A stretch of DNA of 64,000 nt from a virus, in the UHGV virus genome UHGV-1372970; one strand, written 5' to 3'. The notes under the pieces were generated by a model. It made no database searches and was not told the DNA's origin. It worked only from the letters and a program-made list of their open reading frames with translations. Each line of letters opens with the position of its first letter. Position 1 is the first letter of the stretch. Made by a program: the position numbers and the translations under genes. Shown here one piece after another: positions 5,676 to 46,773 of the stretch.

Positions 5676-6050
5676 TTACTGCTCCAGCTCACGGCGAATT
5701 TGTTCGCCGCGCATCTCAGCTTCAGAGGCTGGTGTTTCGCGAAGTACGGCGATGGTTTCCGCGATCTGCTTAGGTGACTCGCTTGCCAGATTCATGATGG
5801 CGGCGCGAATGACGTCAGAGCGAGTAAAGCGGTTCCAGCGGTCGACGTTCTCCATGACAGAGATAAGGCTGATGAACTCGTCTTCGATGCTCATTGTGCG
5901 GCTTTTGATGCTGGACTTCCCGCGGGTAGGCCGACCCTGCGGGCGTACAGGTGAACGCATTGGCGAATTAGAGGCTTTTGCTTCAGTATCCTGAACTGGT
6001 TGCTCTTCAACAGTACGCTTGGCGAGATCGCCCATTTTTCCCATTTTCAT
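5676..6050 (-). CDS. Small ParA partner protein (ParG/RHH-like putative centromere-binding protein). Basic disordered N-terminus, helical C-terminus.
   Basis: 124 aa. Begins 5 nt after the ParA stop. N-terminus is rich in P/R/K. C-terminal segment ...FTRSDVIRAAIMNLA... resembles ribbon-helix-helix partners of type Ib ParA proteins. Confidence 0.35.
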   Translation of the reverse strand: MKMGKMGDLAKRTVEEQPVQDTEAKASNSPMRSPVRPQGRPTRGKSSIKSRTMSIEDEFISLISVMENVDRWNRFTRSDVIRAAIMNLASESPKQIAETIAVLRETPASEAEMRGEQIRRELEQ

Positions 6051-6054
6051 GACA

Positions 6055-6756
6055 CTAACCCTCTAAACTAATAAGATAATCAACTAACTCTTCAATTTCG
6101 TCTTCAGCTTTCTTGTCTCGTTCTTTGCCTTTCATTTCAAAAACAGAGCGACCAGCCTCTTCCGCATCGTCGTAGATATTTCGGTTGTAGATGTTAACTG
6201 GCACTGGCTCGATACCAAACGACTCGATAATTTCTTTTGATGCGAGTATGCGAGACACCTGGGATGGAAGCGATGGACATTGGTTCATCACTACGCGGAT
6301 CTGAACCTCTGGGTTCTCGGCTTTAACGCTCTCAAGGACCGGGTCGATGTCGCGCAAGGACTTCAGGTCCCTGCGTTTAGGCCGAAGAGGTATCAGTATG
6401 GCGTCAGCTATCAGCATGGCCTCACGCTGTATTTCAGAATCGAAACCGCCGGCGTCAACTACGATGTATTCATAACGACCGTTGAGCGATTGAAGGTGTT
6501 TGATTATTTCGTTGCCGACGAAGGCAAAAGGGAGCAGTTCGAGTTTCTTGTTGCCGCGACGATCCTCACACCAGGTTGTCGTAGTACGCTGGATGTCGAT
6601 ATCGGTGACGTGAACCTTCTTCTTCTTTTTGAGCTGCAAACAGGCTGCTACCTGCTGGGCGATGGTGGACTTACCCGGTCCGCCCTTCGTCCCACCAACT
6701 ATGATGAGTCTGGTATCCATTGTTTCGCCTTGTACTGTTTGTAGTTTTGAAAACAA
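6055..6756 (-). CDS. ParA/MinD-family ATPase (type Ib partition-like). True start is probably the internal Met at about 6720 (MDTRLIIVGGTKGG...).
   Basis: Deviant Walker A GGTKGGPGKST. The first codon of the tracked ORF is TTG inside the upstream operator palindrome. An internal ATG with SD AAGG lies at about 6718-6720. Confidence 0.8.
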   Translation of the reverse strand: MFSKLQTVQGETMDTRLIIVGGTKGGPGKSTIAQQVAACLQLKKKKKVHVTDIDIQRTTTTWCEDRRGNKKLELLPFAFVGNEIIKHLQSLNGRYEYIVVDAGGFDSEIQREAMLIADAILIPLRPKRRDLKSLRDIDPVLESVKAENPEVQIRVVMNQCPSLPSQVSRILASKEIIESFGIEPVPVNIYNRNIYDDAEEAGRSVFEMKGKERDKKAEDEIEELVDYLISLEG

Positions 6757-39385: not shown

Positions 39386-39401
39386 AGTAAATACTTACTT
39401 A
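39386..39401. promoter_or_regulatory. Late-type (imperfect) palindrome AGTAAATACTTACTTA between terL stop and portal start
   Basis: Family motif with one mismatch. Overlaps the terL stop codon. Confidence 0.35.
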
Positions 39402-40655
39402 TCTCGATCCACCAAGAATAACACGAGTCTTGACCGGGAATCGACGATGAATTGGATAACCCAGGGCATCGGCGCTGTGCTCGACGTTTCCAGTTTTATC
39501 AATGTCACGGCCACCTGGCTTATAAACCACCTTCTCCAGTGAATCGATCAGATGCTTACATTTCGGGTCGATGTACATGCGCACGTCGCCTGAAGCGGTC
39601 AGTAGCAGTCGGTTTACTGCGTTCACACGGTCAGCGATCGGCGGGTGCTTCTTCGGATGGTCAATTCGCATAAACCCCTTCTCCTTGAAGATGTCCACAT
39701 CCGATTCACCTCGCGCGTGCTGTCGGTATGCACCAGCGGGGTCAGGGAAAACTGTCACCTGGCTTTTCTGGCGCCAATACCGTCTCTCCAACTCATCACA
39801 CACTTCTGACGTGTTGGAAGAGAACAGGACAACCTCATCAATCGCCCAAACTTCGCCGTTAGGCTGCGGCTGCAGGATCACCGATGACATTGGGTCGATG
39901 TTGAAGTCCTGCCCCACCCAGATAGGTAAGCGTGGATTGAATTGCAGAGGCTTTACATGCACACCACGTTCAAACGGGTAATACACACGACCGGACATAT
40001 TTTCGAACGAAGCAAGATACTCCTGCGCGAACGATTTAGGGTCCATGTCGTTTTTGGCCGCTTCGATCTCGCTATCTGGGACGAATGGAGAATCTGCCGT
40101 CACAAACTGCCAGCTCTTCCACAACCCTTTTGCTTGCATCTCTGGGTTCTGGCCGATCATGAATAGCTTATGGAACTCTGAGAAGCCCTTTGGCGTACCG
40201 ATGATCAGCGCACCACCGCGGGTAGACGACAGCGTCGGTCGAAGCACCTTGTACCAGGTGTCCGGCTTCATATCCTGAAACTCATCCAGTACGACAAAGT
40301 TCAGAGCAACACCACGAAGCGTATCCGGCTTATCCGCCCCTTTTAGCGCGATCTCACTGCCGTTCTTCAGGATGATTGTCATCGTGGTATCGTTTTTCTT
40401 CGCGATCCACTTACGAGGCAATACTTCCTGAAGGTCATCCCACAGAATTTGTCGTGCCATCTGATACGTTGGTGCGATGTACCAGACACGCTGTTTGCGG
40501 TCAGCTGCGGCCGCTTTGATGATTTTAGAAATCGACAGTCGTGACTTGCCCCAGCGTCGACCGGCGCACACCACCTTGAAGCGGTGCGGTGACTTGAAGA
40601 CCCTCATCTGCCCCGAATGCAACTGAACCAAGCTCAGGGAGGATGGCATAGCCAT
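39399..40655 (-). CDS. Terminase large subunit
   Basis: Walker A VVCAGRRWGKS. Walker B/acidic NFVVLDEF. C-terminal RNase H-like nuclease region. 418 aa. Confidence 0.85.
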   Translation of the reverse strand: MAMPSSLSLVQLHSGQMRVFKSPHRFKVVCAGRRWGKSRLSISKIIKAAAADRKQRVWYIAPTYQMARQILWDDLQEVLPRKWIAKKNDTTMTIILKNGSEIALKGADKPDTLRGVALNFVVLDEFQDMKPDTWYKVLRPTLSSTRGGALIIGTPKGFSEFHKLFMIGQNPEMQAKGLWKSWQFVTADSPFVPDSEIEAAKNDMDPKSFAQEYLASFENMSGRVYYPFERGVHVKPLQFNPRLPIWVGQDFNIDPMSSVILQPQPNGEVWAIDEVVLFSSNTSEVCDELERRYWRQKSQVTVFPDPAGAYRQHARGESDVDIFKEKGFMRIDHPKKHPPIADRVNAVNRLLLTASGDVRMYIDPKCKHLIDSLEKVVYKPGGRDIDKTGNVEHSADALGYPIHRRFPVKTRVILGGSR

Positions 40656-41245
40656 TAGTCATCCCCCTCGTCGTCTTCATCGAACGCATCCAGCATCTCA
40701 ACGTCATCGACCAGATTATCCTCGTCCATTTTCTTGAGTTCGCTAACCTGGGCTGATGTCAGCTCACCGAAGACCAAATTCGGGATCTCGTCACTGATGT
40801 CATCGTCTTTTTCCAGACCTAACGCACGACTGGTCACGTCAAAGCATTTCTGAATGACCGCACTGGCTCGCTGAAGCGATTTGATGTTGTCCTCAATGAG
40901 CGCCAATGGCTTACCCTCTCGGGTGGCACTCAGAACCTCTTTCATGGTCAAGCGGCCGATGTTTTGCGCCCAGGTATCGTAGGATTCTTTTCGTTCTTCG
41001 ATTTTCTGCGCACGTGCACGTGCACGGATTTCTGCATCCGATTTAAGCGACTCGCGGATCATCTCACCGACACTGTCTGAGCCTTTGGCGATACCCTTCT
41101 TTTTGAAGTACCGCGAGAAGGTTTCAGAGCGCGTGCCGTACTCTTCTTCGAGCATTGATAAGGTGTATTCGCCGGAGCGCCACTTAGCCTCAATCTCTGC
41201 CCACTGCGCCGGAGACAGGCGCGGTTTTTTGGCGGTTTCTGTCAT
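40655..41245 (-). CDS. Terminase small subunit (HTH DNA-binding N-terminus, acidic C-terminus)
   Basis: 196 aa, immediately upstream of terL with overlapping stop/start. N-terminal ...LSPAQWAEIEAKWRSGEYTLSMLEEEYG... HTH. Confidence 0.6.
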   Translation of the reverse strand: MTETAKKPRLSPAQWAEIEAKWRSGEYTLSMLEEEYGTRSETFSRYFKKKGIAKGSDSVGEMIRESLKSDAEIRARARAQKIEERKESYDTWAQNIGRLTMKEVLSATREGKPLALIEDNIKSLQRASAVIQKCFDVTSRALGLEKDDDISDEIPNLVFGELTSAQVSELKKMDEDNLVDDVEMLDAFDEDDEGDD

Positions 41246-41280
41246 AGTTCCCTCTAATTCCGCTCGGCATCTTCCTGACG

Positions 41281-41303
41281 CCTTAAAACAAATTGTTTTC
41301 TGG
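41281..41303. promoter_or_regulatory. Early-type operator element CCTTAAAACAAATTGTTTTCTGG upstream of terS
   Basis: Member of the dispersed AAACAAnTTGTTT element family. 36-58 nt upstream of the terS start codon. Confidence 0.45.
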
Positions 41304-41414
41304 TGGTAGTTGTTTACTAAGCAACCAAAAAACTAAAAAAACAGAGCCGTGCTCTGGATATTTATATATCTGGCAGTTCTTCTTTTAAAAACATACAGAA
41401 TCAGGCTCTTTCAA

Positions 41415-41681
41415 CTACACCAGCAGCATTTTTGCTTTTGCTCTGCCCAAGATAGTCAGCCCCAGCGTCCGACGATGATGCAGCGTTTCGCCCCGCGGCC
41501 GACAGTCGTGCTTTTCAACCAGTCCCTTTTTGATGAGCGCACGTAGAGAAAACTGCATACTCTGCTTGGAGGTTCGGTATGGCAGGATCTCCAGCAACTC
41601 ATCCAGATCGAGAAGATGCCCACGCTCATAACCGAGACTGATTGTTTTGATGATGTCTTTTTGCTTTGATGTCAGGTTCAT
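41415..41681 (-). CDS. Small winged-helix DNA-binding protein (putative regulator)
   Basis: 88 aa. ...KQKDIIKTISLGYERGHLLDLDELLEILPYRTSKQSMQFSLRALIKKGLVEK... wHTH (MarR/TrmB-like) pattern. Confidence 0.4.
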   Translation of the reverse strand: MNLTSKQKDIIKTISLGYERGHLLDLDELLEILPYRTSKQSMQFSLRALIKKGLVEKHDCRPRGETLHHRRTLGLTILGRAKAKMLLV

Positions 41682-41690
41682 TTTGTATCC

Positions 41691-42581
41691 TTACAAAATT
41701 TTCGTTAAATCCAGCGGCGCATCCAGCGGCTGGTTATCAAATGCCAGAAGCGGTAAAACGTCCGGCAGCTGGCGACCGAAGTCTGGGTTCCGATACACGC
41801 CATACAGAGGGCTGGTGAAGCTCAGTGTGTGAATATCCTTCAGCAGCTTCACAATACTGCTCTCGTCAGTCAGCGAGTCAGCAATGTCCTGTACTGTCGT
41901 TCCGCGGTTTCGGCCAGCTTTAGCCAGACTTGAATTTTTGTGGTAGTTCGCAACCAGATCATGCAATGCACGTTTCCTGCGCCCCTCCGCCATTTTAAGC
42001 AGCTCTTTCACCACAGACTCGTTATCGCCAGGGTCAGCTCTGAAATGGCGCTGGAAGACTTTTAGAGCGCTTTCGTAGGAGCGTGGTCGTTCTGGTTTGA
42101 TAAACTGGAACCCTGCTTTCATAGCGAACGGGTTGTATTTGCTCATCGACGACTGAACTTCCAGAATTGGCTTGTCGTGCATACGACTGGCAATATTCAT
42201 GAACCGGTACGAAAGCCCCAGCCCACGGTACTGCGTATCGGCCACCAGACGACTGACAACGGCGAACTCCTGATTCACGCGCTTACCCCAGATCTGATTA
42301 GCCTCTTTCGTGTTCGACGTTGGCTTAATGTCTGGGAACATGCGGTGGCGCGGCGCCAGCAGCAGCTTCGGATAGGCCATAACCAAAACACCGATAAGAC
42401 GGCCGTCAAGTTCGGCGCGATAGTAGGATGGTGCGAACGGCTTGCCGTCTGTTTTGTAGTGCAACCCTTTCAGCGCGTTCCAATCCTCAACCGTCCCTCT
42501 CTTCACCACGATGCGCTCCATGAAATCCAGATGGCGCGGGAACTCTTCAGGCTGGTGGTGCGTGATAACTACATCGTTCAT
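41691..42581 (-). CDS. GNAT-fold acetyltransferase-like protein (296 aa)
   Basis: GNAT motif A ...VSRLVADTQYRGLGLSYRFMN... preceded by hVLVMAYP beta strand. Long C-terminal helical extension. Confidence 0.4.
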   Translation of the reverse strand: MNDVVITHHQPEEFPRHLDFMERIVVKRGTVEDWNALKGLHYKTDGKPFAPSYYRAELDGRLIGVLVMAYPKLLLAPRHRMFPDIKPTSNTKEANQIWGKRVNQEFAVVSRLVADTQYRGLGLSYRFMNIASRMHDKPILEVQSSMSKYNPFAMKAGFQFIKPERPRSYESALKVFQRHFRADPGDNESVVKELLKMAEGRRKRALHDLVANYHKNSSLAKAGRNRGTTVQDIADSLTDESSIVKLLKDIHTLSFTSPLYGVYRNPDFGRQLPDVLPLLAFDNQPLDAPLDLTKIL

Positions 42582-43135
42582 CGCTTCATCACCTTTCTGA
42601 CACTCTCGAACCCACCCTGGCGAATCGTATGAGGATCTCGTGTTACGATTGAGGCGATCGGGGGCAAGCCACCGGCTTTCTTATCAGCCTTAAACTGACG
42701 AAATGCCGCATCGAGCATTTCCGCGACGTAGCCCTGTAGATAGGTGATGGCTTCCTGATCGGACAGATGTACACCGTGAGATTCAGCCGTCGACATCGCG
42801 ACGTGCAATGCTTCATGCCACAGTGTTTTCTCGTCCTGACTGTCTGGCAGGAACACACCATGCACAGAGCGATCGGCTTCGAAGTAACCCATATCAGTGA
42901 CCCAGCCGCCCACGTCATCAATGAACTGGCTGTCATCCACTCCGTATAGCTGTTTCATGGTTTCGACATAACGAGCGGCGCCGAAGACAACCACGCAGCG
43001 ACTGTAATAAGGCGCCACGCGGAAACCGTATGCACCGTGCGCTCTCAGCCATTCACGCCATTCGCCTTCAGTGGTGAAGCGGCGCCGCAGCTGGGCGCCC
43101 TCGAAGATTGGAAAAACCTTGCTATCAATGCTCAT
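42578..43135 (-). CDS. HExxH zinc-metallopeptidase-like protein (SprT/ImmA-like, 185 aa)
   Basis: ...TLWHEALHVAMSTAESHG... HExxH motif with downstream acidic residue. Overlapping start/stop with neighbours. Confidence 0.45.
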   Translation of the reverse strand: MSIDSKVFPIFEGAQLRRRFTTEGEWREWLRAHGAYGFRVAPYYSRCVVVFGAARYVETMKQLYGVDDSQFIDDVGGWVTDMGYFEADRSVHGVFLPDSQDEKTLWHEALHVAMSTAESHGVHLSDQEAITYLQGYVAEMLDAAFRQFKADKKAGGLPPIASIVTRDPHTIRQGGFESVRKVMKR

Positions 43136-43766
43136 AGTCCACCTTCACACGTTCTTTGTAGTGCTTGGTGATCTGCACAGACGGACGCAGCGCGTTCTTT
43201 AAATCTTCGTGCGTGGTAGCGACGATAACCGTTGCGCCGGCAGCGCGGGCGGCACGCTGTAGGTTCGACGCAACAACCTGCGCCGTGACACGGTCAAGAA
43301 CGGCTCCAAATTCGTCAGCTACCCAGACATCAGCCCCGGACTCAATCAGCTTGGCGATTTTGAGACGGTACTTTTGACCGTCCGACATCTCAGACGGCTT
43401 CCGCACAAACAGATAGGCATCATTCAAGCCGGCCATGGACAACAGGCCCAGCGCGTCGCTGGTGGTTTTCCCCAACTGGTCTATTACGTTGGTATCGTCC
43501 CGAAAGACGAAGTCATCAATGGACGCAACAGTTTGACCGTTTTTCGCCATCAAACTCTGTAGCTCACGCAAAATAACGGACTTACCGGAACCAGACTGAC
43601 CTGTCACGTAAACGACGTCGCCGCCTGCAATATCCAGCTCAAGGTTGTCATAGAGAGTCCACTCTTTTTCCTCCAGACCCAGGCCAAACGACTCTGCAAT
43701 CTCCAACGTGCGGATCGTTTTATTGACCCGCGTGTTAAAGGCAACGTTGATAAGGTACTTACCCAT
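43125..43766 (-). CDS. Small ABC-type ATPase (about 214 aa). The tracked ORF 43125-44000 is probably N-terminally over-extended.
   Basis: Walker A GQSGSGKS. ABC signature MSDGQKYRL. Walker B VWVADEFGAVLD. H-loop TTHEDL. Internal ATG at about 43764-43766 (MGKYLINVAF...) gives an 8-nt overlap with the upstream ParB-like stop. Confidence 0.6.
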   Translation of the reverse strand: MGKYLINVAFNTRVNKTIRTLEIAESFGLGLEEKEWTLYDNLELDIAGGDVVYVTGQSGSGKSVILRELQSLMAKNGQTVASIDDFVFRDDTNVIDQLGKTTSDALGLLSMAGLNDAYLFVRKPSEMSDGQKYRLKIAKLIESGADVWVADEFGAVLDRVTAQVVASNLQRAARAAGATVIVATTHEDLKNALRPSVQITKHYKERVKVDYEH

Positions 43767-44439
43767 GCTCCGTCGCTCCTTCGGAGATTTTCGCAGCATA
43801 AGCGAGGAAGGCAGCTTCACCCATAAGACCGGTTTCGTCTTCCATCCACGCCAGCAAATCACCCACCACGATTGCATCGCTGGTCGGGACATCTTTAAAG
43901 CCCAGAATATCGACGATACGAGTGCGGCCACCTGCGACCTCTTCCGTAATCGACTTGTGCTCTTCGCGCTGGCGCTCTGCCTCTTCGTTGAGATCGTCAA
44001 TCAGCGTGTCATCGGCCATCTTTTCAGTGAGATCTTCGATAAACACCTTCAGCTCGCGATCCTCAAAACCGTAAATATCGACACCATCATCCTGAAGCAG
44101 CTCGGTCAGCTCTTCCTGCATACGAACTGCGTCATAATCGATACTGGCGAGTCGGTTGTCTTCGAGGCGCTTAGCGCGTACAGCGCTTTCTGACAGGTCA
44201 TCACGAACGATGACGGGAACAGTAGCAAGCCCCGCCAGCAGTGCGGCTTCACGTCGGCCGTGACCGGTGATGATCACTCGATGCTTATCAACGGTGATAG
44301 GCTGGTCGAACCCGCGGCTTTTGATGGCAGCGGCCAGGTCTTTGATCTGGCGTTCATCATGTTTTTTCGCGTTTTTCTCATACGGGATGAGCGTGCGCGG
44401 GTCTAAATATTTAATTTTAAACGACTTTTCCATCGACAA
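43759..44439 (-). CDS. ParB-N (ParB/Srx nuclease-like) domain protein with acidic C-terminus
   Basis: ...ITVDKHRVIITGHGRREAALLAGLATVPV... ParB box II-like GxxRxxA motif. Confidence 0.65.
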   Translation of the reverse strand: MSMEKSFKIKYLDPRTLIPYEKNAKKHDERQIKDLAAAIKSRGFDQPITVDKHRVIITGHGRREAALLAGLATVPVIVRDDLSESAVRAKRLEDNRLASIDYDAVRMQEELTELLQDDGVDIYGFEDRELKVFIEDLTEKMADDTLIDDLNEEAERQREEHKSITEEVAGGRTRIVDILGFKDVPTSDAIVVGDLLAWMEDETGLMGEAAFLAYAAKISEGATEHG

Positions 44440-45130
44440 CGTCCTTGTAATATTGAGTCAGCCATACCAGGGCCTCGCCAGCGTCTTCCATGTCGCTGCC
44501 TGTCTTAATACCCTGTTCACGGATAATGGTTTTTACGATTTCAGTGACACCTTCAGCGGTATCAAAAGAAACCTTAAAACGCATGGTCTGGTGCTCCACG
44601 CCGAGGCGCTCTTTCGTTTCACGGGGGTCTGCCTCCGCTACACTGTCACCTTCCTCACCCAGCAATCCCAGCTCTTCGAGGTCGATCCGGGACTCACGCG
44701 CCAGCGTTGCCGTCAATTCCTCGTCATATGGGGCGATTTCAGCCAGCGAGTAGTCGATTTCAGCCTGAATACTCTCAATCAGACGCTGAAGCTCGACCGC
44801 ATCGTCCTCACCGTAACGCTCGTTATCGACCAGAGACATTTGCTTAGCGACGTTGTCCTCAACGACGCCCACTGATGTCACCGGCACTGAAGCCATGCCC
44901 TGCTCAATAGCAGCACGCCAGCGGTGTTCTCCGCCGAGGATCTGATAGGTGCCATCTTCCATATCGCGAACGAGGATCGGCTTGAAGAAACCGAGACGGT
45001 CGATTGAGTTTTTCAGCTTGTCGAAGTTTTGCGCACCGACAACATTCGTATTCCAGGGGTTAGGCCGCAGCTGGGCTGTCTCCACCGTCAAAATACTAAT
45101 TTTAACGTCCATATTTTTGATACAATCCAT
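44417..45130 (-). CDS. ParB-N domain protein (paralogous to downstream gene)
   Basis: ...ILVRDMEDGTYQILGGEHRWRAAIEQGMASVPV... ParB N-terminal domain motif; acidic middle region. Confidence 0.65.
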   Translation of the reverse strand: MDCIKNMDVKISILTVETAQLRPNPWNTNVVGAQNFDKLKNSIDRLGFFKPILVRDMEDGTYQILGGEHRWRAAIEQGMASVPVTSVGVVEDNVAKQMSLVDNERYGEDDAVELQRLIESIQAEIDYSLAEIAPYDEELTATLARESRIDLEELGLLGEEGDSVAEADPRETKERLGVEHQTMRFKVSFDTAEGVTEIVKTIIREQGIKTGSDMEDAGEALVWLTQYYKDVVDGKVV

Positions 45131-45135
45131 TTAGT

Positions 45136-45152
45136 AAGTAGTTACTTATATA
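45136..45152. promoter_or_regulatory. Late-type palindrome TAAGTAGTTACTTA in the divergent ParB-cluster/helicase promoter region
   Basis: Perfect TAAGTA-GT-TACTTA. Lies in the 65-bp gap between divergent genes. Confidence 0.4.
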
Positions 45153-45195
45153 GAATACCCAATTAGCATAAATAAGGCACGAAGGAAATTAAAAA

Positions 45196-46773
45196 ATGAC
45201 AGTCAGGATTGTTTTTGACGCAGTCAACGCCATCGTCAAAGGGGCAGATGACGACGTTAATCTAAAAATACAGAAAATGCTTAGTTACGACGTGGATGGC
45301 GGTCGATACAGTGGCGGCGATAGTGGCTGGAATGGTCAGAGCACCATGTTCAGTTGGGCTAACGGTGTGTTTCCCGCGGGATTTGCGCGAGCCGTCGCTG
45401 CAGATCTTGGTCGGTCTGGAGTTAAGTGCGCTCTTGTCAGGAAAGAACTCACTAAGCCTCTCGGTAAGCCAAACCCTGTAGTAAGCCCATTCCCATACAA
45501 CCCAGATTACGCTTACCAAGATGAAACGTGCGAGCGTCTGGTTCGTTTTGGCGGAATGATCGCGCAAGTGGCTACCGGTGGCGGGAAATCTCAAATAGCG
45601 TGTAAGGCGGCTGCGCGGATTGGTCGCATGACGCTGTTTATCACCACGCGGTCTATGCTCATGTACCAGATGCAGGAAAATTTTCAGGAATCAATGGATT
45701 ACCGCGCCTCACATGGTGAGCCATGGCTGGAGAATGAAAAGGTTGGTGTCATCGGCTCTGGTGAACTGAAGTTCTCTCGCTTCATTAACGTGGCGACTGT
45801 TCAGACGCTCTCCAGCTTTCTGAGTGAGCCTGGCCGGGATTTAAGTAAAGAGAAGCGCGACTTCCATCTTCGTCGTCGCGAACTCATCAAAAAGATGCTG
45901 GCCAACGTATCTCTACTGATTCTCGAAGAGGCGCACGAGGCATCAGGCGAAAGCTTCTATGAAATAGCCCGGCTCTGTAAAAATGCGGATTATCGTTTAG
46001 CGCTGACAGCAACGCCCTTCATGAAGGACAGCACCGAAGCGAACATGCGACTGATGGCCGTATCTGGTCGAATAGAGATCAAAGTGTCTGAAAAATATCT
46101 GATTGATAAAGGTATTTTGGCAAAACCCTTTTTCCTTTATCGTAAAATCGGTTACGTTCCTGATACTGAACGGCTTAACAAGGAATTAACAGGCAAACAT
46201 GTAAACTTCCGCGTAAGCATGACGACAGCGTATCAGAAGGCATATCAGCTCGGCATCACATATAATCTGGCTCGAAATAGCGCGATTGTTGACACCGCCG
46301 TGACCTTTAAGCAATTTGGTTTAAGCTGCATGACGCTGGTTAGGCATGAAAGACACGGGCAGATACTGAAAGAAATGCTGGAGCAAAGAGGTTTAGTAGC
46401 GAGTTTTATCAATGGGAAATCTTCAGCAGCAACGCGATCGGCCAAGCTGATTGAACTTGCTACAGGAAAGATTGACGTACTGATAGGCTCAACGATTCTG
46501 GATGTGGGTGTAGACGTCCCGAGCGTAGGATCGGTAATCATGGCTGGTGGCGGAAAAGCGGAAGTGGAGCTTAGACAGCGTGTGGGGCGAGGTCTTCGCA
46601 AAAAGAAAAACCAGGCTAACGTCTGCTTCGTTGCAGATTTTCTGGACACATCCAACAAGCACCTCATGTCACACTCCTACGAGCGGAAAAACATCATCGA
46701 GACGACGCCCGGGTTTGCGGAAGGTCTTCTTGGGATTGATGGTAAATTCGACTTCTCGATTCTCGCGTCTTAA
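45196..46773 (+). CDS. Superfamily-2 (DEAD/DEAH-like) helicase
   Basis: Motif I TGGGKS. DEAH-like LILEEAHE. Helicase C motifs ...VLIGSTILDVGVDVP... and ...QRVGRGLR... Confidence 0.8.
   Translation: MTVRIVFDAVNAIVKGADDDVNLKIQKMLSYDVDGGRYSGGDSGWNGQSTMFSWANGVFPAGFARAVAADLGRSGVKCALVRKELTKPLGKPNPVVSPFPYNPDYAYQDETCERLVRFGGMIAQVATGGGKSQIACKAAARIGRMTLFITTRSMLMYQMQENFQESMDYRASHGEPWLENEKVGVIGSGELKFSRFINVATVQTLSSFLSEPGRDLSKEKRDFHLRRRELIKKMLANVSLLILEEAHEASGESFYEIARLCKNADYRLALTATPFMKDSTEANMRLMAVSGRIEIKVSEKYLIDKGILAKPFFLYRKIGYVPDTERLNKELTGKHVNFRVSMTTAYQKAYQLGITYNLARNSAIVDTAVTFKQFGLSCMTLVRHERHGQILKEMLEQRGLVASFINGKSSAATRSAKLIELATGKIDVLIGSTILDVGVDVPSVGSVIMAGGGKAEVELRQRVGRGLRKKKNQANVCFVADFLDTSNKHLMSHSYERKNIIETTPGFAEGLLGIDGKFDFSILAS

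Follow-up and report, generated by a model that had tools for sequence, protein, structure and literature searches.

The window, a stretch of 64,000 nucleotides from virus genome UHGV-1372970, is a Klebsiella phage-plasmid of the SSU5 type. Six tightly coupled minus-strand open reading frames at 41415-45130, directly upstream of its DNA-packaging genes, probably encode a single multi-subunit machine consisting of five conserved genes with an unrelated cargo gene inserted mid-way. The conserved gene products would assemble into one complex, and the machine probably modifies either DNA or a target of the packaging stage chemically. The explanation that we tentatively prefer is an ATP/NTP-gated, DNA-directed acyltransferase that would act around genome maturation.

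In gene order, the minus-strand cluster encodes two ParB-N paralogues, ParB1 (44417-45130, 237 aa) and ParB2 (43759-44439, 226 aa from the first start, TTG), an ABC-type ATPase (43125-43766, 213 aa), an HExxH protein that is cargo of a variable slot (42578-43135, 185 aa), a GNAT-like protein (41691-42581, 296 aa) and a small, probable wHTH protein (41415-41681, 88 aa). With ParB2 counted from TTG 44439 and the ABC gene from ATG 43766, consecutive genes overlap by 23 (ParB1/ParB2), 8 (ParB2/ABC), 11 (ABC/HExxH) and 4 nt (HExxH/GNAT), while 9 nt separate the GNAT and wHTH genes and a 169-nt spacer precedes terS. The likely start of ParB2 is ATG 44433, corresponding to about 224 aa. As in the initial annotation, the six genes are coupled on one strand, and their translational coupling is confirmed. 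All six of its domain guesses hold, with the wHTH and peptidase calls remaining weak, and its ATPase is indeed a compact ABC domain, the length of which has to be corrected from 214 to 213 aa (from ATG 43766). On the plus strand, an SF2 (ResIII/DEAD) helicase is encoded divergently at 45196-46773 (ResIII, E 4.3e-16; Helicase_C, E 6.7e-10). It adjoins the module in every split-type locus examined and occupies the same position in loci L002, L003 and L160-L170. Judging from this gene arrangement alone, the operon promoter or promoters presumably lie in the shared 65-bp intergenic region (45131-45195, no strand assigned), in which a sigma-70 consensus could not be recognized.

The ABC ATPase and the GNAT-like protein are well supported as the N- and C-terminal halves, respectively, of a split ABC-GNAT enzyme with COG2401 architecture. 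The ATPase matches ABC_tran (E 2.1e-11) with Walker A, LSDGQ signature, Walker B/D-loop and H-loop all intact, aligns to positions 117-350 of phrog_293 and has ABC nucleotide-binding domains as its nearest solved relatives; it is a complete transporter-class nucleotide-binding domain without a membrane partner. In the GNAT-like protein, a GNAT domain (residues ~20-165) is followed by a family-specific helical/beta C-terminal domain for which no fold partner was identified. A profile search with this protein yielded 891 relatives, many of them 440-500 aa long with the GNAT part at residues ~200-480 and ABC_tran at the N-terminus. Such ABC-GNAT fusions are common (e.g., P0282 and P0289) and form a single polypeptide in many other phages as well as in archaeal or bacterial elements. 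In addition, fusions of the type PolB-ABC-GNAT (family B DNA polymerase) were found within a phage replication module. A DnaA-like-ABC-GNAT fusion exists as well, and an intein is present in one ABC domain. P0323 and P0338 combine ParB-N, ABC and GNAT in a single chain, in the same order as the genes in the window. Because they are fused into one protein in other phages, the ParB-like, ABC ATPase and acetyltransferase-like proteins probably form one machine, and the earlier suggestion that ParB and the ABC ATPase cooperate, with the acetyltransferase as output, receives strong backing from these natural fusions.

The ATPase/GNAT pair is a catalogued architecture: annotators at JGI and GenBank use the name 'ABC-type ATPase with/fused to a predicted acetyltransferase domain, MK0520' for each of the halves. 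The initial annotation, which did not recognize the combination as a described system, needs revision as regards this pair; in its support, no functional description of the module was found in the searchable literature. COG2401/MK0520-like proteins share with the window the domain order of ABC followed by a GNAT-like domain with C-terminal extension; the fused members are matched by the window GNAT profile at E 1e-26 to 1e-15 and match both phrog_293 (ATPase) and phrog_886 (GNAT). In contrast to them, the enzyme in the window is encoded by two separate genes that flank an insertion slot, and it is accompanied by two ParB-N paralogues, a wHTH protein and an adjacent terminase, none of which is implied by the COG name. 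To our knowledge, no function has been experimentally established for this family.

Database product names reading 'ABC transporter' could suggest that the ATPase is an ABC transporter fragment and that the cluster arose as a chance assembly of unrelated morons. This is extremely improbable and is refuted by the full-length domain with its intact motifs, by the lack of a permease gene and by the fusions to GNAT, ParB and PolB. Synteny argues in the same direction, being retained in relatives from Rhizobium, Pseudomonas, Stenotrophomonas and marine sources in which the GNAT gene has dropped to 37-45% identity. Furthermore, in the more distant phage records, megablast still detects nothing of the operon except the ATPase stretch (query ~1719-2354), and plasmid records matched by the whole operon number 636 vs. 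168 for the terminase genes. Among public plasmids, the GNAT gene is present in 966 and this type of terminase (TerL) in 995, with near-identical counts per genus. The cluster thus occurs in about 97% of the plasmids with this terminase type and is core rather than accessory, in disagreement with its original designation as an accessory cluster; nor does the ATPase turn out to be a transporter fragment in a cluster missing from related phages. The module was also found in phages not known as plasmids.

The conserved unit comprises five genes and one variable slot, not six fixed genes. Among 93 related loci, the slot between the ABC and GNAT genes carries the HExxH gene in 23 and an ORF of 84-86 aa in 39, and is empty in 19. 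Small variable genes accumulate in this hotspot, among them those for gp49_66, RyR and HExxH PolyVal-like proteins. The HExxH protein, in which the sequence WHEALH is invariant among 15 homologues, looks like a minimal zincin. It is not an integral effector, as first proposed, but belongs to a set of alternative cargoes found in the slot that splits the ABC/GNAT pair, and is a separate, lineage-restricted accessory and possibly a counter-defence peptidase. The wHTH gene, on the other hand, is located directly downstream of the GNAT gene in 91 of 94 SSU5-type loci scanned. Its product matches LexA_DNA_bind (E 1.5e-4) with 21.9 bits, below the Pfam cutoff of 23.7, and TIGR lexA (E 1.5e-5); profile matches are limited to MarR/LexA/Lrs14 wHTH proteins and are non-significant (best E 0.035). 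Sequence-specific DNA binding or regulation is its probable role.

Identity between the two ParB-N paralogues amounts to 27%. ParB1 (Pfam ParB_N, E 4.9e-15; phrog_723, E 2.4e-68) has a near-canonical box II (GGEHRWRAA) that retains GExRxRAA. An acidic middle region and a short C-terminal domain follow, an HTH DNA-binding domain is lacking, and the alignment with Spo0J/ParB structures is limited to residues 13-134. ParB2 (Pfam ParB_N, E 5.1e-9; phrog_930, E 7.8e-87) also matches phrog_498 (ParB-MTase, E 2.3e-31) and PADLOC MTase_II (E 2.4e-18). In its box II, it follows the GHGRREAA pattern known from ParB-methyltransferase fusions, and it is this type of ParB domain that occurs fused to DNA methyltransferases of phages. 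It matches ParB proteins in the PDB over residues 8-95 only and likewise lacks an HTH domain. With an acidic linker joining the NTP-binding N-domain to a small C-domain, the paralogues are well supported as accessory NTP-gated DNA clamps or activators.

Two ParB_N proteins on an element that is a low-copy plasmid prophage could also serve partition or segregation, with the ABC ATPase replacing ParA or SMC. We consider this role, envisaged in the initial annotation, very improbable: a ParA-like gene is situated 38 kb away (6061-6714) next to small partner genes (5685-5960; SSU5_033/034), neither paralogue has an HTH domain and both match solved ParBs over the N-domain only. Moreover, integrated prophages and phage isolates for which no plasmid state is reported have the module in its place next to the terminase, and in other phages ParB is fused to the acyltransferase. 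Closer parallels are offered by ParB-dependent DNA-modifying clusters. The clade E phage thymine dioxygenase (5mYOX) depends on an experimentally required ParB-like activator without DNA-binding domain, and the ParB-like ATPase DpdB works with DpdA. In both cases, as would also apply to the window, a short HTH-less phage ParB-like protein, built from an NTP-binding N-domain, a linker and a C-domain, is encoded beside a DNA-acting enzyme, often near terminases. The window differs in having two ParB paralogues and, as candidate modifier, an ABC-gated GNAT instead of a dioxygenase or transglycosylase.

An ABC ATPase combined with a ParB-superfamily protein and an effector is also found in Menshen (NsnABC) and other ParB-ABC ATPase conflict systems. 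In Menshen, a ParB-DUF262 protein with a ParBDB domain and an OLD-type ABC protein with DUF3696 are combined with inPIN-nuclease effectors. By analogy, the module could be a conflict system for counter-defence or for defence/exclusion, with ParB sensing DNA, ABC transducing the signal and the GNAT effector inactivating a host defence factor or acetylating aminoacyl-tRNA or some different target in the host; the slot would hold additional cargo for counter-defence, for example the HExxH peptidase. The combination of ParB, ABC ATPase and an interchangeable effector in Menshen speaks for this possibility, as do weak PADLOC matches of the ABC protein to MADS mad3/mad8, the hotspot nature of the slot and the presence of tRNA-acetylating GNAT toxins on the same plasmids (e.g., KacT in Cyrano). 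Nevertheless, we regard it as quite unlikely. No PADLOC Nsn model is matched, and the window encodes ParB_N (PF02195) rather than DUF262 and a transporter-class ABC protein rather than OLD/AAA_15 with DUF3696, together with a GNAT. Instead of residing in a host defence island, the module belongs to a strictly syntenic phage core set in about 97% of relatives, whereas defence and anti-defence islands are usually patchy, and its GNAT gene, like the module, is missing from the list of genes expressed during lysogeny in the SSU5-like prophage Cyrano.

Downstream of the operon follow a putative small terminase gene, terS (40655-41245, minus strand; 196-aa protein, phrog_867 match), and directly thereafter a putative terL (39399-40655, minus strand). 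SSU5_002 is annotated as terminase large subunit, and the orthologues in L002 and L003 carry Terminase_6N. The spacer contains an element (41342-41409, no strand assigned) that is a candidate terminator or cos/terminase site. Two arms (41343-41366 and 41386-41409) form a degenerate inverted repeat, and a minus-strand hairpin (41356..41342) carries a T-run. Most relatives have in this spacer a near-perfect palindrome of 90-100 nt, inside which the linear SSU5 GenBank record is cut. Between the operon and terS there is thus a terminator-like hairpin or palindrome, so that co-transcription with the late genes cannot be taken for granted. The enzyme adjoins the large terminase in at least three phage lineages in differing order: module, terS and TerL in the SSU5 supergroup, ParB-ABC-GNAT, a 158-aa ORF and TerL in the triple-fusion phages, and TerL followed by ABC-GNAT in a sediment phage lineage.

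These three TerL-adjacent arrangements place the favoured acyltransferase in a packaging-stage context. They would also suit a packaging accessory acting on proteins, in which the ParB pair and the wHTH protein recognize the adjacent packaging site and recruit or regulate terminase, and the ABC-gated GNAT acetylates a protein such as TerS, TerL, portal, or a host nuclease or nucleoid protein instead of DNA. The operon ends 60-170 nt from the large palindrome, a candidate cos at which the linear SSU5 record terminates, and 24 of 80 viral contigs stop no more than 300 bp downstream of the gene, as opposed to 1 of 80 within 1 kb upstream, a bias that may also stem from provirus trimming or assembly breaks. 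We judge this alternative unlikely: a separate terS-like gene is already there, the PolB- and DnaA-like fusions and terminase-free loci do not fit a terminase-specific role, and the association with ASCH genes finds no obvious place.

This association concerns another subset of loci, in which the enzyme abuts YqfB-like ASCH genes (10 fused-type viral loci and the separately fetched L176). In at least six loci including L176, these genes converge directly on the 3' end of ABC-GNAT, and their products retain the Lys, Thr, Arg and Glu residues that are essential in the N4-acylcytosine amidohydrolase YqfB. The window itself lacks an ASCH gene, which speaks against the favoured explanation; in the related loci, these neighbours hint at N-acylation of bases. 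TmcA/NAT10 (Kre33) joins a P-loop NTPase to a GNAT, and nucleotide hydrolysis drives N4-acetylation of RNA cytidine. The same logic of an NTPase-coupled GNAT acting on a nucleic-acid base is proposed for the window enzyme, and the mark is removed by the family to which the ASCH neighbours belong. The GNAT-fold, adenine-modifying Mom of phage Mu, on the other hand, is no more similar than dozens of unrelated GNATs and lacks the ABC or ParB partners of the window.

Several observations weigh against the acyltransferase explanation. We know of no modification of SSU5-type DNA, and such a modification is not visible from sequence. ASCH-linked and most TerL-linked fused loci represent one or few related viral lineages, so that locus counts overstate independent events. 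No ParB lies within 7 kb in most fused-type loci, so that it is no universal requirement. Some loci have ABC-GNAT at the border of a module, following a tail gene or preceding a primase or integrase, where accessory genes likewise collect.

Speaking for a DNA-directed acyltransferase are the ABC motifs, conserved in split and fused forms alike, which together with GExRxRAA in ParB1 suggest catalytic competence, and the links to DNA provided by the PolB and DnaA-like fusions, the intein, the ParB2-type/methyltransferase fusions and the parallels with the ParB-dependent thymine dioxygenase and DpdA/DpdB. The core status of the GNAT gene and its absence from the Cyrano lysogeny list also count in favour. 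In the lytic cycle, at about the time of genome maturation and packaging, ParB1 and ParB2 would load onto phage DNA, and ATP-driven dimerization of the ABC heads would then position or gate the GNAT domains. These may transfer an acyl group from acyl-CoA to a DNA target, most likely an exocyclic base amine, for instance at the N4 position of cytosine.

A 111-kb plasmid of Klebsiella oxytoca matches the 3.7-kb operon region at 99% identity and Salmonella phage SSU5 matches it at 72.5%, which marks the window as part of a phage-plasmid of the SSU5 type. The operon opens the structural gene region and is followed on the minus strand by a terS-like gene and the genes for the large terminase and the portal protein. 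The six tightly coupled open reading frames that the initial annotation had placed at 41415-45130, encoding two ParB-like proteins (ParB1 and ParB2), an ABC ATPase, an HExxH protein, a GNAT-like protein and a small winged-helix (wHTH) protein, were all recovered there, with overlaps of 23, 8, 11 and 4 nt and then a 9-nt gap. ParB2 most likely starts at an ATG at 44433. The ABC ATPase gene was also recovered, but not the size of 214 aa that had been given for its product, as the ATG at 43766 yields 213 aa, identical to the database entry P0121. The frame of this gene stays open for 78 more codons upstream within the ParB2 gene, to a TTG at 44000 (43125-44000, minus strand), and a 291-aa entry in a mechanical ORF list is the same frame run back to this TTG; database homologues and a ribosome-binding site support 213 aa as the true product. 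On the opposite flank, a divergently transcribed SF2 helicase of the ResIII/DEAD type is encoded (45196-46773, plus strand). The helicase divergently adjoins the operon in every examined locus that carries the ATPase and the GNAT-like protein as separate genes (split type), a 65-bp intergenic region lies between them, and the helicase of one relative exhibits weak UvsW_N similarity. Helicase and operon may be co-regulated or functionally linked.

Assignment of the third protein as an ABC-type ATPase is borne out by Pfam (ABC_tran, E 2.1e-11), and the complete set of predicted motifs, i.e., Walker A, signature, Walker B/D-loop and H-loop, is present. The stretches GQSGSGKS, SDGQKYR, VWVADEFGAVLD and ATTHED are retained in fused relatives. 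The protein constitutes a complete nucleotide-binding domain of the transporter class with all catalytic motifs; a transporter fragment was rejected for this reason and because a membrane partner is not present. For the GNAT-like and HExxH proteins, profile searches against PDB sequences returned spurious matches only and fold comparison was used instead, while NCBIfam and PADLOC returned nothing specific for the GNAT, HExxH or wHTH proteins. The GNAT-like protein contains a GNAT-fold domain with an acyl-CoA binding loop, and this domain is homologous to the C-terminal part of fused proteins. The acetyl-CoA loop R119-x-x-G122-x-S/A and the block EIQSSMSKYN-FA-KAGF are invariant or almost so. 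Residues 165-296 are helical/beta and family-specific, and no relative was found for them.

The fused proteins surfaced through the GNAT-protein profile and not through the ATPase, for which the homologue search was saturated by near-identical Klebsiella sequences and returned no fusions. Among 1.84 billion representative proteins, the GNAT profile retrieved 891 relatives, many of them 440-500 aa long, matching at residues ~200-480 and starting with an ABC_tran domain (Pfam) at the N-terminus; phrog_293 (ATPase) and phrog_886 (GNAT) both match the fused relatives, in that order (PHROG). Homologues of both window proteins are labeled 'ABC-type ATPase with predicted acetyltransferase domain' by JGI and 'MK0520 protein, ABC-type ATPase fused to a predicted acyltransferase domain' in GenBank phage records. 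While this COG2401/MK0520-like fused family is known by name alone in catalogues, the window features a split form, in which the HExxH gene (185 aa) lies between the ABC and GNAT genes; in 19 of 93 related loci nothing separates the pair. We therefore treat the pair, on sequence grounds, as a probable split member of the ABC ATPase-GNAT group (COG2401 architecture) and not as a fusion. The ATPase and the GNAT protein would then be one split enzyme, of which ParB appears to be a part.

The latter notion stems from two natural triple fusions, P0323 (677 aa) and P0338 (666 aa), in which a ParB-N domain is added at the N-terminus of ABC-GNAT. Their domain order, ParB-ABC-GNAT, is the gene order of the window, and this Rosetta-stone evidence argues that the three activities act together. 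The fused ParB domain scores equally weakly against both paralogues, and its assignment to either of them was dropped; an 88-aa ORF upstream of one triple fusion (L089) has no detectable relation to the wHTH protein of the window. In searches for related loci, the ParB profile was built from N-domains only, since triple fusions otherwise pull in ABC-GNAT proteins. Other fusions join ABC-GNAT to a family B DNA polymerase (P0327 and P0295), to a DnaA-like domain (P0308) or to a TFIIB repeat (P0276), and in P0286 the ABC domain is interrupted by an intein. P0327 belongs to a phage replication module that also encodes Prim-Pol, RecA and a 5'-3' exonuclease. In fetched relative loci, such unusual fusions with family B DNA polymerase, with a DnaA-like domain or with an intein carrying a LAGLIDADG endonuclease in the ABC domain are seen in L085/L086/L150 (8001-11783 in L085), L175 (7001-9544) and L176 (2291-4984). 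The polymerase fusion has 1260 aa and occurs in 35 index blocks.

The presence of two paralogous ParB-N proteins was confirmed (PF02195, 55.8 and 36.5 bits at a cutoff of 26.3; mutual identity 27%), with ParB1 and ParB2 belonging to different PHROG families. ParB1 carries a near-canonical box II, GEHRWRAA, and ParB2 the variant GHGRREAA; ParB2 scores best with ParB domains fused to phage DNA methyltransferases. Alignments to solved ParB structures end at residue 134 in ParB1 and at residue 95 in ParB2, thus covering the N-terminal NTP-binding domain only, and TIGR00180 scores lie under the cutoff of that model. With 226-237 aa including an acidic linker, both proteins are too short for an HTH domain. 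The partition-like role once considered for them did not hold up: neither the central HTH domain nor the adjacent parA gene of canonical ParABS systems is found, and a ParA-like partition ATPase (6061-6714; 75% identical to the SSU5 ParA-like gene SSU5_033) with a small downstream partner (pair 5685-6714, minus strand) lies 38 kb away, such that partition is assigned to a separate locus. The reading as partition ParB was rejected on both counts.

Short ParB-like proteins without a DNA-binding domain, encoded beside an enzyme, are also a feature of the 5mYOX-ParB and DpdAB systems. Clade E 5mYOX dioxygenases oxidise thymine in vivo only when phage ParB-like proteins of reduced architecture are present (bioRxiv 10.1101/2025.08.14.668559); ParB1 and ParB2 have the same reduced architecture as these activators and parallel DpdB with DpdA (PMC12839542). 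A survey of the ParB-CTPase fold lists acetyltransferase fusions and varied NTP specificity, while the present module is not described there (PMC12704722). The juxtaposition of ParB and ABC proteins is also reminiscent of Menshen (NsnABC), and the module might accordingly encode the effector of a conflict system. Menshen, however, is defined by a ParB-DUF262 sensor, an OLD-type ABC ATPase with DUF3696 and an inPIN-nuclease effector, whereas the window proteins match ParB_N and ABC_tran only (Pfam) and none of these defining families, and no Nsn model is among their PADLOC matches. We deem a conflict-system effector, one of two main rivals to DNA acylation, quite unlikely.

The HExxH protein had been grouped with the ParB and ABC proteins in one machine, and this was not upheld, because it occupies the ABC|GNAT junction in only 23 of 93 SSU5-type loci. 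In the remainder this gap is filled by an 84-86-aa ORF (39 loci), is empty (19) or holds other small ORFs; the HExxH proteins themselves have 182-185 aa. The junction is an insertion hotspot. Its further occupants include gp49_66 and RyR-domain proteins (L003). Relatives whose proteins are only 42-45% identical, from Ectothiorhodospira and from a prophage integrated in a 3.3-Mb contig, keep the order throughout, from the divergent helicase via two ParB genes, ABC, between one and three small unrelated ORFs and GNAT to an 87-92-aa ORF, a spacer, terS, TerL and portal, and gene order is identical in 11 further viral contigs. We conclude that the unit consists of five genes (ParB1, ParB2, ABC, GNAT and wHTH) plus a slot, and that the HExxH protein stands outside the conserved machine as a lineage-restricted accessory. 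Only 24 homologues of the HExxH protein occur in a collection of 5.8 billion proteins, all in SSU5-type elements, and the HExxH motif is invariant in this 185-aa protein. The structural model (pLDDT 89) displays an alpha/beta domain in which the HExxH helix is followed by a helix with a conserved QEA. Foldseek relates it to small uncharacterised phage proteins among viral models (E 6.6e-6) and more weakly (E 3e-3 to 3e-2) to entries named PolyVal metallopeptidase, metalloprotease and SprT-like. The model is plausibly that of a minimal zincin.

To assess distribution, the GNAT protein and the large terminase served as queries in tblastn searches of a plasmid database (E of 1e-30 or better). The GNAT protein was found in 966 plasmid records as compared to 995 with this type of large terminase, and counts per genus are almost identical: 341 vs. 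342 in Klebsiella, 207 vs. 206 in Escherichia, 90 vs. 90 in Enterobacter, 62 vs. 62 in Yersinia, 49 vs. 50 in Salmonella, 25 vs. 25 in Citrobacter and 146 vs. 172 in Acinetobacter. In nucleotide searches, 636 plasmids match the operon and 168 match terS-terL, and in more distant phage records megablast still detects the ATPase stretch of the operon alone. The split module is furthermore present in isolated phages, namely Rhizobium RHEph10-like, Pseudomonas nickie-like, Stenotrophomonas and Xanthomonas siphoviruses of 105-120 kb. The near one-to-one relation to the terminase and the broad distribution therefore identify a core gene set, neither a moron nor a patchy defence island. None of the module genes is among the listed lysogeny-expressed genes of the SSU5-like prophage Cyrano (PMC9928086), and the module is apparently off in lysogeny.

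The last protein of the operon had been described as a small wHTH protein. Its matches are consistent with this, as the family profile finds only wHTH proteins of the MarR/LexA/Lrs14 types in the PDB, but they are weak (best E 0.035) and, for LexA_DNA_bind, sub-threshold (21.9 bits vs. a cutoff of 23.7, Pfam). The spacer between its gene and terS (41246-41414) contains a small G+C hairpin with a trailing T-run (41356..41342) inside a degenerate 24-nt inverted repeat with arms at 41343-41366 and 41386-41409 that are 71% complementary. Comparison of the wHTH-terS spacers of loci L004-L083 revealed a near-perfect palindrome of 90-100 nt in most relatives, centred on TAAGTGACTTA, with a predicted folding energy of about -43 to -53 kcal/mol; it also appears in L001 (1-62) with L171 (1-133). 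The linear GenBank record of SSU5 is cut inside this palindrome, which places the module at a genome end. The palindrome may be a cos/terminase site, a bidirectional terminator or both, and with such a structure in the spacer the operon and the late genes are not necessarily co-transcribed.

A first scan of viral contigs yielded close SSU5-type loci only and a second was seeded with fused proteins; neighborhoods were analyzed for 89 loci in total, 74 of them of the fused type. A large terminase (Pfam Terminase_6N) ends -96 to +515 bp upstream of ABC-GNAT in 39 of the 74 fused-type loci and lies just downstream in six, while wHTH-terS-TerL follows in all 12 split-type loci still having the GNAT gene. 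Unbiased clustering of neighbors assigned most of the 39 loci to one lineage with the fixed order tail gene, small ORFs, TerL and ABC-GNAT. As this single large lineage inflates the adjacency, arrangements were counted instead of loci, resulting in three or four independent ones: the module upstream of terS-TerL in the SSU5 supergroup; ParB-ABC-GNAT, a 158-aa ORF, TerL, a PF04860 portal and Mu-F in the triple-fusion phages; TerL and then ABC-GNAT in a sediment lineage; and ABC-GNAT, an 84-aa ORF and TerL in a variant of the latter. Elsewhere, ABC-GNAT is located directly after a tail gene, before a primase or integrase gene, or in early/replication regions. Among IMG/VR loci L092-L159, 24 of 80 contigs end within 300 bp downstream of ABC-GNAT, several of them only a few bases from its stop codon, and one of 80 ends within 1 kb upstream; this bias may reflect physical genome ends or, equally, provirus trimming or assembly breaks, and it was not relied upon.

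Vicinity to the terminase could indicate that a protein is acetylated in connection with packaging, the other main rival reading, which we consider unlikely. The ParB partners, the fusions to family B DNA polymerase and a DnaA-like domain and the terminase/genome-end context speak for DNA as the substrate, and the ABC-GNAT machine is tentatively viewed, at a little less than an even chance, as a DNA-directed acyltransferase. In this enzyme, ATP would bring the ABC heads together in a dimer gating the GNAT domains. The ParB pair would be a DNA clamp or activator under NTP control, site recognition or regulation would fall to the wHTH protein, and DNA would be acted upon at genome maturation.

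A possible mark is suggested by a second recurrent neighbor, an ASCH-domain gene (37.5 and 32 bits vs. a Pfam cutoff of 21.2), present in 10 fused-type viral loci and in the separately fetched L176; in six or more loci, L176 included, it converges directly on the ABC-GNAT 3' end. Loci with ASCH next to ABC-GNAT comprise L092, L093 (8398-8730, minus strand), L109, L113, L125, L134, L136, L158 and L176. No ASCH gene is found in the 64-kb window. YqfB requires Lys21, Thr24, Arg26 and Glu74 for its N4-acylcytosine amidohydrolase activity (PMC6972931), and the ASCH neighbors keep counterparts of all four. ASCH proteins have also been reported to erase tRNA ac4C (bioRxiv 10.64898/2026.02.27.708502). 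These neighbors thus hint at N4-acylcytosine chemistry. A further parallel is offered by TmcA/NAT10, in which a helicase-type P-loop ATPase (PF05127) is combined with GNAT_acetyltr_2 and a tRNA-binding domain; these Pfam families are absent from all six window proteins and the resemblance would be a likeness of logic only. TmcA/NAT10 enzymes, uniting P-loop ATPase and GNAT, acetylate cytidine at N4. On the basis of the ASCH link and this analogy, N-acylation of bases is the most specific hypothesis: ParB-ABC-GNAT might represent a class of DNA writer not recognised before, an ATP/NTP-gated enzyme that installs an acyl mark, e.g., N4-acetyl- or N4-acyl-deoxycytidine, with ASCH as eraser or reader in related phages, and marking would coincide with maturation and packaging of replicated genomes. 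We regard this proposal as conceivable, albeit doubtful.

The combination had originally been noted as unrecognised, and in agreement with this we found no literature description of a split ABC-GNAT pair with paired ParB-N and wHTH proteins at a terminase; earlier computational mention is possible. Known kinds already include ParB plus ABC conflict systems and DNA-modifying enzymes with a ParB activator, and we classify the module as putative NTPase-gated, ParB-assisted nucleic-acid-modifying machinery. SSU5-type phage-plasmids are common in clinical Klebsiella, Escherichia, Salmonella, Yersinia, Enterobacter and Acinetobacter, and around a thousand sequenced plasmids have the module in their core. 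An operon of five strictly conserved genes that heads the packaging genes and has no assigned function therefore leaves a true gap in the understanding of phages. Through the fusions, three proteins named 'hypothetical' or misnamed 'ABC transporter' and 'partition protein' become one testable machine, and the slot within the operon offers a well-delimited hotspot for the search for counter-defence genes. DNA acylation, if it occurs, would add a new enzyme-based way of modifying phage DNA, with bearing on restriction evasion, sequencing-based detection and biotechnology, and would extend the emerging theme of ParB-fold NTPases activating DNA-modifying enzymes. If a packaging or host protein is acetylated instead, a new regulatory layer for genome packaging would emerge. 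Should the module indeed write an acyl mark, an unrecognised DNA modification would be borne by many environmental phages and, among sequenced enterobacterial phage-plasmids, by around a thousand, relatives of Yersinia pestis and Salmonella Typhi plasmids among them.
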